IMG/VR virus record: IMGVR_UViG_2657244943_000004
DNA from: a virus
Taxonomy: Duplodnaviria; Heunggongvirae; Uroviricota; Caudoviricetes
Strand: one strand, 5' to 3'
DNA length: 19,187 nucleotides
The notes below the pieces were generated by a model. That model made no database searches. It saw only the letters and a program-made list of their open reading frames with translations, and was not told where the DNA came from. Shown in pieces: positions 14,196 to 16,181 of this stretch; the first letter of the stretch is position 1; each line of letters opens with the position of its first letter. Both the position numbers and the translations under genes were made by a program.

Positions 14196-14226
14196 AAATA
14201 TTTACAGATAAAATAAACCCGCCGAA

Positions 14227-14457
14227 TCAAGTTAAGTGTGGGTGCATTGAGGATGCCTGACTCATCAGAGGTGGCGAGGGATTTCTCCCTCGCCTGGTCT
14301 CTAACTCCTCAGGTTCGTAAGCTGTGAAGACAGCGACCTCCGTTTGGCTGGTTCGGATTCGTACCTCACAGAGATCTTTCCTCGTTACCAGTGCCGTCAC
14401 AATGACAGTTAAACAGATGACAATCAGGGCGATTAACATCGCCTTATGCTGCTTCAT
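14227..14457 (-). CDS. hok: Hok/Gef-family type I toxin gene with C-terminal read-through extension (or pseudogene)
   Basis: From the ATG at 14457: MKQHKAMLIALIVICLTVIVTALVTRKDLCEVRIRTSQTEVAVFTAYEPEE, a near match to chromosomal Hok/Gef toxins (about 50 aa). The codon at 14302-14304, where the stop is expected, is TTA, so the frame continues 26 codons to TGA at 14227-14229. Which hok paralogue this is remains uncertain. Confidence 0.85.
   Translation of the reverse strand: MKQHKAMLIALIVICLTVIVTALVTRKDLCEVRIRTSQTEVAVFTAYEPEELETRRGRNPSPPLMSQASSMHPHLT
14273..14294 (-). other. Perfect 9-bp hairpin in the hok 3' region
   Basis: ggcgaggga-tttc-tccctcgcc; position corresponds to the 3' stem-loop of hok-family mRNAs. 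It lies inside the extended reading frame. Confidence 0.6.
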
Positions 14458-15084
14458 AGCCTGCTTCTCCTTGCCTTTCGGCACGTAAGAGGCTAACCTA
14501 CGTGTGCAAGTCATAGATATGGCCTCAGATTAATGTTAGGCGTCTTGCAGGACGCGTAATGTTAACTGGGGCTTTTCTCTATCTGCCGTTGGTATTCATG
14601 CCTGAGACAGATAGCCTCAAGCACCCGCAGCAATCCTACTTAACTCCCGTCACCTCGCCAATATAAAATCAATCAGAAAGGCGATCCATAAGAACAACAG
14701 CAAGACAATAAATTGCCATTACAGCCGCAATAGCGAGCGCACATTTGAGAACCAGCACGACAACCTCCTGTATTGGACGTACACCAGTCCTGATAAATAT
14801 GAGGCTGTCTCATCATTGATTCAATAAAACTATTGGGAATAGTTTCTGTGATTTTGTTCTGTAGAAATGGAACACAACAACCAGTCACCACCAGCACTTC
14901 TTTAAAAACGCCAAGTCCGACGCAAGCTAACCTTCTAGTCCGCTTTGAACGATGAGCGGAAATTGACATATCTGTTAAAGTGAATGGTTCGTTTTGCAGG
15001 GATACTTACACTGCCCCCTGTCAAAATGATATACCGAAGAATAAGAGTTCTTCTTCAAGAACAACAAAAAGAGATCATTCCAGC

Positions 15085-15482: not shown

Positions 15483-16181
15483 ATGAAAAAAGAACTTGAA
15501 ACCATACTGCCTGAGTTTGGTGAGGCAATTCGCCCTTACGTTTATAGTTACGTAACAGCAAACAAAAATGCCAATGCCAAGCACGTCCTGTTTATGGCTG
15601 GTTCGCCTGCTGCAGGTAAAACCGAGCTCTTAAATCGTCTTTTAGAACAACATGGCATCACAAACATTGTTCGAATTGATGCTGATGATTTTCGCTGGTG
15701 GTTCCCCTACTACAATGAAGAGAACTCTGTGGACTATCAGAGACCTGCCTCCAGAATGGTCGATTTTATCTACAAAAAAGCGCTATCTGAAGGCTATCCC
15801 ATTGTTATGGACTCTACTTTCTCCAGTATAGGTATTGCGGAGAGAAACTTTGATCTGGCCCTGAAGGCTGGTTATCAGGTAGCACTGAATTACGTCTATT
15901 TTGATCCGGCTTACGCGTGGGTTTTTGCCCAAGCCCGCTCTCGTAAGGTTCCGTTAGAGGTTCTTAAAGCGAACTTTTTCAAGAGCAGAGAGACCATTGA
16001 ACATATGCTCGCGAAATATGCAGGCCTATTTACACTCAATGTTTATCATCGACGGGAAGATCCTGAAAATGATGGTCAGTTCGTGGTCGACTATACTCCT
16101 AACGTGACCCTTGAAAACTGGACTACCTCCCATAGCTGCCCATATTCAGACGTTAGCGATCTAGCGCATTTAGGTGTATAA
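15483..16181 (+). CDS. Zeta-toxin-like P-loop kinase (AAA-like NTP-binding domain)
   Basis: Walker A GSPAAGKTE at residues 40-48, followed by VRIDADDFRWWFP, resembling the catalytic Asp region of zeta/PezT-type kinases; 232 aa. Family assignment from motifs only. Confidence 0.7.
   Translation: MKKELETILPEFGEAIRPYVYSYVTANKNANAKHVLFMAGSPAAGKTELLNRLLEQHGITNIVRIDADDFRWWFPYYNEENSVDYQRPASRMVDFIYKKALSEGYPIVMDSTFSSIGIAERNFDLALKAGYQVALNYVYFDPAYAWVFAQARSRKVPLEVLKANFFKSRETIEHMLAKYAGLFTLNVYHRREDPENDGQFVVDYTPNVTLENWTTSHSCPYSDVSDLAHLGV

Follow-up and report, generated by a model that had tools for sequence, protein, structure and literature searches.

The hok locus described here lies in the nin region of an Escherichia coli lambdoid prophage, between the replication genes and ydfU-rusA-Q, and is contained in a stretch of viral DNA of 19,187 nucleotides, referred to below as the window. 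On the minus strand, translation of the open reading frame 14457..14227 (ATG at 14457, TGA at 14229..14227) yields a protein of 76 amino acids. Residues 1-51 of this protein (MKQHKAMLIALIVICLTVIVTALVTRKDLCEVRIRTSQTEVAVFTAYEPEE, codons 14457..14305) are those of a Hok/Gef toxin, as the original prediction for this DNA had it: residues 6-47 match the Pfam family HOK_GEF (PF01848; 75.7 bits, E 2e-21, cut-off 22), and 49 of the 51 residues are identical to those of K-12 HokD, the differences being Q4H and G37S only. The codon that follows is TTA (Leu, 14304..14302), found here, again as predicted, in place of the family stop TAA, which alignment places at this position in E. coli 357900, 503025 and K-12 and in phage 933W. 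After residue 51 the frame runs on through 25 sense codons including the TTA (LETRRGRNPSPPLMSQASSMHPHLT), adding a tail with three arginines and four prolines, and ends at a TGA that lies 3′ of both the conserved hairpin (which ends at 14273) and the fbi element (which ends at 14240). The predicted read-through is borne out, but the figure of 26 further codons given for it takes in the stop.

Judged by these alignments, a single A-to-T change has converted the shared hok/mok stop TAA into TTA, and TTA is the derived state. Where the family has a toxin frame of about 50 codons with a conserved stop just 5′ of the 3′ hairpin, the frame here has 76 codons. The locus belongs to the hok/sok family, as one of the hokW-sokW or full-length hokD type, and the conserved stop is the sole defining feature that it lacks. 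In the identical sequence of E. coli ARS-C301, PGAP annotates the gene as a hokD pseudogene (‘missing C-terminus’), and an NCBIfam search with the extended protein returned Hok matches below threshold only. The features of the locus, in positions of the window, are the following.

14656..14661, minus strand: hok promoter −35, TTGGCG, 17 nt 5′ of the −10; putative, placed by mRNA 5′-end spacing and conservation in related loci
14633..14638, minus strand: hok promoter −10, TAGGAT; putative placement, TAGAAT in nearly all relatives
14452..14626, minus strand: hok mRNA leader, with tac, ucb, Sok target, mok start and hok Shine-Dalgarno sequence; Rfam RF01794
14615..14626, minus strand: predicted hok mRNA 5′ end and tac element, GGGUGCUUGAGG; first position of RF01794, alignment to R1, pairing with fbi in the minimum free energy (MFE) fold
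14506..14576, plus strand: Sok-like antisense RNA, 71 nt, predicted from its alignment with SokW, annotated as misc_RNA in phage 933W (AF125520)
14471..14499, plus strand: putative Sok promoter, −35 TTGCCT (14471-14476), 17-nt spacer, −10 TAACCT (14494-14499); homology
14458..14514, minus strand: mok leader reading frame, ATG at 14514..14512, Shine-Dalgarno sequence GAGG, in frame with hok; alignment to the annotated mokW start
14305..14457, minus strand: hok toxin coding sequence, 51 codons; Pfam PF01848 and identity to HokD
14302..14304, minus strand: TTA replacing the stop TAA; alignments, codon counts and a 61-nt probe
14227..14301, minus strand: read-through extension, 24 further sense codons and TGA, 3′ UTR in relatives; translation
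14273..14294, minus strand: conserved 3′ stem-loop, counterpart of the stem that ends the processed (Tr) hok mRNA; folds and alignment to R1
14240..14252, minus strand: fbi element, CCUCAAUGCACCC, pairing with tac in MFE and centroid folds
14208..14233, minus strand: degenerate intrinsic terminator, AACTTGATTCGGCGGGTTTATTTTAT; comparison with the canonical form

Leader, antisense RNA and 3′ structures

Upstream of the toxin gene we identified, by homology, a complete hok/mok/sok arrangement with a predicted Sok RNA, contrary to the original prediction, in which no mok/sok arrangement was evident. The Rfam model RF01794 (sok), derived from the hok leader and extending as far as the hok AUG, has a full-length match at 14626..14452 of the minus strand (model positions 1-157 of 157; 108.1 bits, gathering score 59, E 2.5e-25), and it is joined by the mok start at 14514, the Sok RNA and its promoter, and the pairing of tac with fbi. 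Weak Rfam matches to ceN48 and Fungi_SRP were far below their gathering scores and were set aside. The predicted first nucleotide of the hok mRNA, G 14626, aligns with the 5′ end of the R1 hok mRNA (GGCGCUUGAGG). Read from the mok start through hok, the frame encodes 95 amino acids, and we take the N-terminus of mok to resemble that of K-12 MokC.

The plus-strand Sok-like promoter and terminator, for which a search had been advised, correspond to the candidate RNA at 14506..14576 and the promoter at 14471..14499. This RNA is predicted to fold into a single-stranded 5′ end of 15 nt, a long terminator hairpin and a CUUUU tail, at −31.3 kcal/mol compared with −29.9 kcal/mol for SokW. Its putative promoter is invariant across the aligned TAA and TTA alleles, and has the same layout as the R1 Sok promoter. 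A consensus scan for promoters and terminators missed the hok promoter, the Sok promoter and the hok terminator alike; the Sok promoter escaped it because its hexamers are weak. Those of the hok promoter are weak too, and both promoters were placed by homology.

In a comparison of the window with 357900, 503025 and 933W, about 25 nt around the mok start (14490..14525), where the single-stranded 5′ end of Sok pairs, proved hypervariable between otherwise near-identical alleles. Some genomes hold up to 8-9 hok copies, and the hypervariability is consistent with a diversification of antisense specificity among co-resident copies.

At the 3′ end, the perfect 9-bp hairpin that had been predicted is present as GGCGAGGGA-GAAA-TCCCTCGCC (14294..14273, minus strand), with nine perfect pairs, and is conserved across the family; by our estimate, a stretch of 231 nt would contain about 0.001 perfect 9-bp hairpins with a 4-nt loop by chance alone. 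It aligns with the R1 hairpin GGCGGGC-GCAG-GCCCGCC, and mutations in the terminal stem of R1 abolish the Tr-hok mRNA (PMC9841398). In the MFE and centroid folds predicted for RNAs of 422 nt and 390 nt, the 5′ and 3′ ends close through tac and fbi, with a fold z-score of −6.47 against 100 shuffles.

The terminator and the promoter of the window depart from the usual form, and both changes are degenerative. IMG/VR loci were retrieved by a pattern in which the codon after residue 51 was left free, and the 120 loci counted here are a sample, among the matches listed. Within it, the canonical terminator AACCCGCTTCGGCGGGTTTT (AACCCGC-TTCG-GCGGGTTTT) was found in 99 loci and the variant AACTTGATTCGGCGGG, with CTTGA, in four, including all three TTA loci; the CTTGA terminator also occurs in strain 357900, which has TAA. 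It is the change from CCCGC to CTTGA in the terminator arm that creates the TGA of the extension. The hairpin energy is −3.0 kcal/mol with CTTGA versus −11.8 kcal/mol for the canonical form, and the failure of the scan to report the terminator fits this degenerate stem. The −10 sequence TAGGAT is confined to the three window-type TTA loci among the 101 listed IMG/VR loci that include the leader, and matches TATAAT at 4/6 positions, versus 5/6 for TAGAAT.

Distribution of the TTA allele

The nearest relative of the locus, that of strain 357900, is 97% identical and has TAA. That TTA differs from the nearest relatives by a single base is the one point in favour of a sequencing or assembly error, which the original prediction had allowed for and by which the true codon would be TAA and the gene an ordinary 51-codon hok. 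Several independent sources speak against this. A lambdoid prophage of E. coli ARS-C301 matches the window over its whole length at 100% identity, and 601 nt around hok are 100% identical also in the complete genomes of MB07081, MFDS1022581 and MFDS1019527, which come from unrelated sources, so that four complete genomes carry the allele: one comes from Texas cattle, one from seawater, and two are Korean isolates. Exact matches to a 61-nt probe with the codon at its centre were limited to 4 of 4878 E. coli records, almost all of the rest being 1-3 bases off, and among the 120 listed IMG/VR loci the codon is TAA in 113, TGA in four and TTA in three. In a 15-billion-protein collection, the exact 95-aa product read from the mok start was present on 53 contigs and the 76-aa product on seven; the same protein ending at residue 51 was present on 16. 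Moreover, a Logan contig (L127) joins the TTA/CTTGA 3′ half to a consensus 5′ half with TAGAAT, which indicates that the TTA allele has undergone recombination and that its linkage to the −10 change is not strict. The codon, finally, lies outside any homopolymer.

Because these independent assemblies agree, we regard TTA as real, and an error is almost certainly not the explanation. Taken together, the sequence comparisons mark TTA as a genuine, derived and rare allele, with a frequency of 0.1-2.5%.

Stop loss has also occurred by other routes. An independent change from TAA to GAA is found on a 109-kb metagenome scaffold (L128:1501-1845) in a background with the canonical terminator, and a variant with a Tyr codon is present in metagenome assemblies. 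On backgrounds other than that of the window, the read-through products (among them the metagenomic proteins P0003, P0007 and P0008) have 114 to 141 amino acids, and the extension has 44 or more.

A family of functional longer proteins sharing the same sense codon, the finding that would have spoken for a normal long Hok, did not emerge from these searches; the longer forms are a few near-identical E. coli alleles. A conserved longer-Hok family was rejected on the same grounds, since the 90%-identity cluster consists of 10 near-identical E. coli alleles whose length is set by unrelated downstream mutations.

Probable consequences of the stop loss

We think it likely that the window carries a complete hok/mok/sok locus with a real stop-loss allele, its toxin being inactivated or strongly attenuated. 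An ‘inactivating or modifying mutation’ had been among the possibilities first named, and it is the best reading in light of experiments on stop loss and C-terminal tagging in the hok/sok system of plasmid R1. In R1, the full-length hok mRNA is translationally inert through pairing of tac with fbi; slow 3′ trimming then gives a truncated mRNA that refolds, from which mok and hok are translated, except where binding of Sok leads to destruction of the duplex by RNase III (PMC9841398). A saturating suppressor screen of R1 hok/Sok by FASTBAC-Seq recovered, among loss-of-toxicity mutants, six stop-abolishing substitutions that extend the protein by 17 amino acids, and an 8-aa C-terminal FLAG tag abolishes R1 Hok toxicity (PMC9841398). 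Because stop substitutions and a C-terminal tag both suppress toxicity in R1, the allele in the window is likely to be inactivated or attenuated, and loss of toxicity is, by analogy with these experiments, the most likely outcome. When we translated an R1-type sequence past its TAG, we obtained exactly 17 residues, with a TGA beyond the terminal stem; this reproduces the extension of the screen and validates the transfer of coordinates from R1. The weakened terminator and −10 sequence on the same allele, the independent stop losses in metagenomes and the PGAP pseudogene call also speak for this reading.

By this analogy, a stable hok mRNA would start at 14626 and be locked by pairing of tac with fbi (14252..14240), until slow 3′ trimming to the hairpin at 14294..14273 opened it. 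Translation of mok (ATG 14514) and then of hok (ATG 14457) would follow, and binding of the Sok RNA (14506..14576, plus strand) would block it and trigger decay. With TTA, both Hok and Mok would acquire the Arg/Pro-rich C-terminal tail of 25 residues, and such a tail on a C-terminus that is normally short and periplasmic would probably inactivate the toxin in the manner of the FLAG tag and the R1 extensions. On the 3′-trimmed mRNA the frame would have no stop at all, and ribosomes may run off after about 11 residues of the extension, to be rescued by tmRNA. The two outcomes are not mutually exclusive. The predicted non-stop fate depends on the position of the R1 processing site, which is transferred here by homology; for the truncated RNAs of hokW, the authors of that study call for further investigation (PMC8621323).

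Several observations weigh against inactivation. The promoter core, mok, the Sok promoter, the Sok hairpin, tac, fbi and the 3′ hairpin are all intact, although decay would be expected if the gene had been dead for long, and the TTA allele has lasted long enough for recombination with a second 5′ half (L127) to occur. In addition, the R1 Hok used in the experiments is only distantly similar to HokD. The intact RNA elements and the recombined allele would fit a 76-aa Hok that is a functional variant, still toxic or modified, in a working toxin-antitoxin system under Sok control, a reading that would also accord with the spread of the allele and with the unchanged N-terminal transmembrane part of Hok. 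HokW carrying a C-terminal 3xFLAG tag still reaches the inner membrane (PMC8621323), so that a C-terminal tail does not prevent membrane insertion. However, we consider a functional long variant rather unlikely, as the stop-loss and C-terminally tagged variants of R1 Hok are non-toxic (PMC9841398). The tail is moreover read from sequence that is conserved for RNA structure (the hairpin and fbi), not for coding, and its length is an accident of the terminator mutation (25 residues here, at least 44 in other alleles); the allele is rare, and its frame lacks a stop on the 3′-trimmed mRNA.

The substitution also has a predicted effect at the level of RNA. In the folds, the change from A to U replaces an A.G mismatch by a U.G pair within the helix that flanks the 3′ hairpin, which stabilises the local 3′ structure by 4.2 kcal/mol (from −30.7 to −34.9) and the full-length folds as well. 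Since the strength of the 3′ stem controls the abundance of Tr-hok mRNA in R1 (PMC9841398), the change might have been selected for mRNA stability or 3′ processing, with stop loss as a side effect. We regard this as very unlikely. The partner base varies in the family, being G, T or C in CTCTGATG, CTCTTATG and CTCTCATG, which argues that the outer helix is not tightly constrained and leads us to regard the stabilisation as incidental; furthermore, in the GAA and Tyr-codon alleles the stop was lost through changes elsewhere in the codon, pointing to the stop and not to a base pair as the common target, and the stop is abolished whatever the effect on the RNA. Editing of the codon by a TadA-type enzyme was dismissed, as UUA is not known as an editing context for TadA.

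It is conceivable, but extremely improbable, that the stop-less allele is kept not as a dead gene but as a sensor of failing ribosome rescue. Its product would then normally be tagged by tmRNA and destroyed, and toxin would accumulate only if trans-translation or rescue were compromised, as under phage attack or stress.

Under the preferred reading of an inactivated or attenuated toxin, the locus is a natural case of the class of stop-loss mutation already found by the deep mutational screen of R1 hok. That stop loss disarms Hok is already known experimentally, and the allele has already been captured by annotation. The case illustrates how prophage hok/sok loci decay in small steps while their RNA control elements stay intact; beyond annotation its significance is small, and the locus is otherwise an ordinary prophage-borne hok/mok/sok.

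Related hok loci and neighbouring sequence

The closest characterised relative is hokW-mokW-sokW of Stx phage 933W and Sakai prophage 5 (AF125520; Takada et al. 2021, PMC8621323). The two loci share about 90% identical DNA across leader, coding region and 3′ UTR, the order tac, Sok, mok, hok, 3′ hairpin and fbi, and a location in a lambdoid prophage. They differ in that hokW has TAA after 51 codons where the window has TTA, and in the modules upstream of the promoter and downstream of fbi. The 5′ end of Sok and its target region also differ in sequence, from which it follows that the window and 933W alleles differ in antisense specificity. Experimentally, hokW-sokW is a toxin-antitoxin pair of type I, in which HokW is induced after mitomycin C and approximately doubles phage release (PMC8621323); by analogy, the prophage of the window would lose this roughly two-fold boost.

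The stop-suppressor mutants of R1 hok (Le Rhun et al. 2022, NAR, PMC9841398) belong to the same class of mutation, reading through the 3′ stem-loop and ending beyond it. They are, however, laboratory mutants of a distantly related plasmid hok, whereas the allele in the window is natural, and R1 has an out-of-frame mok and an extension of 17 residues, whereas here mok is in frame and the extension has 25. The hok/sok (parB) locus of plasmid R1 itself shares the tac/fbi fold-back, 3′ processing and mok-coupled translation, presumably by the same mechanism, and an antisense Sok with a single-stranded 5′ end and a terminator hairpin; it differs in its low nucleotide identity outside the conserved boxes, its mok frame and its plasmid location.

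In hokD (relF) of the K-12 Qin prophage, the likeness extends from the 49 identical residues to the same 3′ UTR hairpin and fbi and the same downstream neighbours, a hypothetical gene and ydfU (DUF968). K-12 hokD has, however, lost everything upstream of the hok Shine-Dalgarno sequence (tac, ucb, the mok start and sok) and has relBE there, whereas in the window the leader is complete and relBE absent, and it is the stop codon that is missing. Homology between K-12 and the locus begins only at the hok Shine-Dalgarno sequence (14471 in the window), relE replacing the whole leader, and at least 80% of a 601-nt probe of leader plus gene is matched in 2181 complete E. coli genomes. In the identical region of ARS-C301 we found no relBE upstream of hok; what lies there are hypothetical proteins and a zeta-toxin family protein. 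The absence of relBE reported in the original prediction is therefore correct, but by this comparison it is the normal condition and no anomaly: the relBE-hokD arrangement of K-12 is a truncated exception, and most E. coli prophage copies keep the full mok/sok leader.

Further upstream, a 98-aa reading frame (14969..14673, minus strand) has no Pfam match and no PGAP call, and is broken by 1-nt deletions in three related loci (L022, L063 and L064). It had been judged non-coding, with which we agree, and its candidacy as a real gene (mok, relE or other) was rejected on these grounds. Inside it, just 5′ of the hok promoter, is a hydrophobic 29-aa reading frame, MLVLKCALAIAAVMAIYCLAVVLMDRLSD (14669..14769, minus strand; GTG at 14758, stop at 14671..14669), with a strong Shine-Dalgarno sequence, AGGAGG (14769..14764). 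Of 14 distinct related sequences, 12 keep this frame intact; it is frameshifted in 357900 (L002), and L122 has no match to the Shine-Dalgarno and start. About six of its ten variable sites are synonymous, a suggestive but weak sign. It occurs on 146 and 62 contigs and is not annotated by PGAP, although some GenBank records list a 34-aa version as ‘membrane protein’; NCBIfam and Pfam searches gave no match. The frame may encode a small membrane protein or another small toxin besides Hok.

Upstream of the hok mRNA start (approximately 14627..14960 in the window), a module of about 330 bp is 89-97% identical in about 30 fetched prophage loci and in phages Tritos, Evi and mEp460; other hok loci, that of 933W among them, differ upstream, and an Rfam search of the module gave no match. 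On the opposite strand, adjoining hok in the accessory region, are the zeta-toxin family protein (232 aa; 15483..16181, plus strand) and an adjacent 208-aa hypothetical protein, a pair that may be another toxin or defence module. At the far end of the window, several related prophages match only to 19110, leaving the end segment 19111..19187, and the match to ARS-C301 falls into two pieces across 28 kb of the record for the 19-kb query, which points to either a short repeat or the border of a module at the end of the window.
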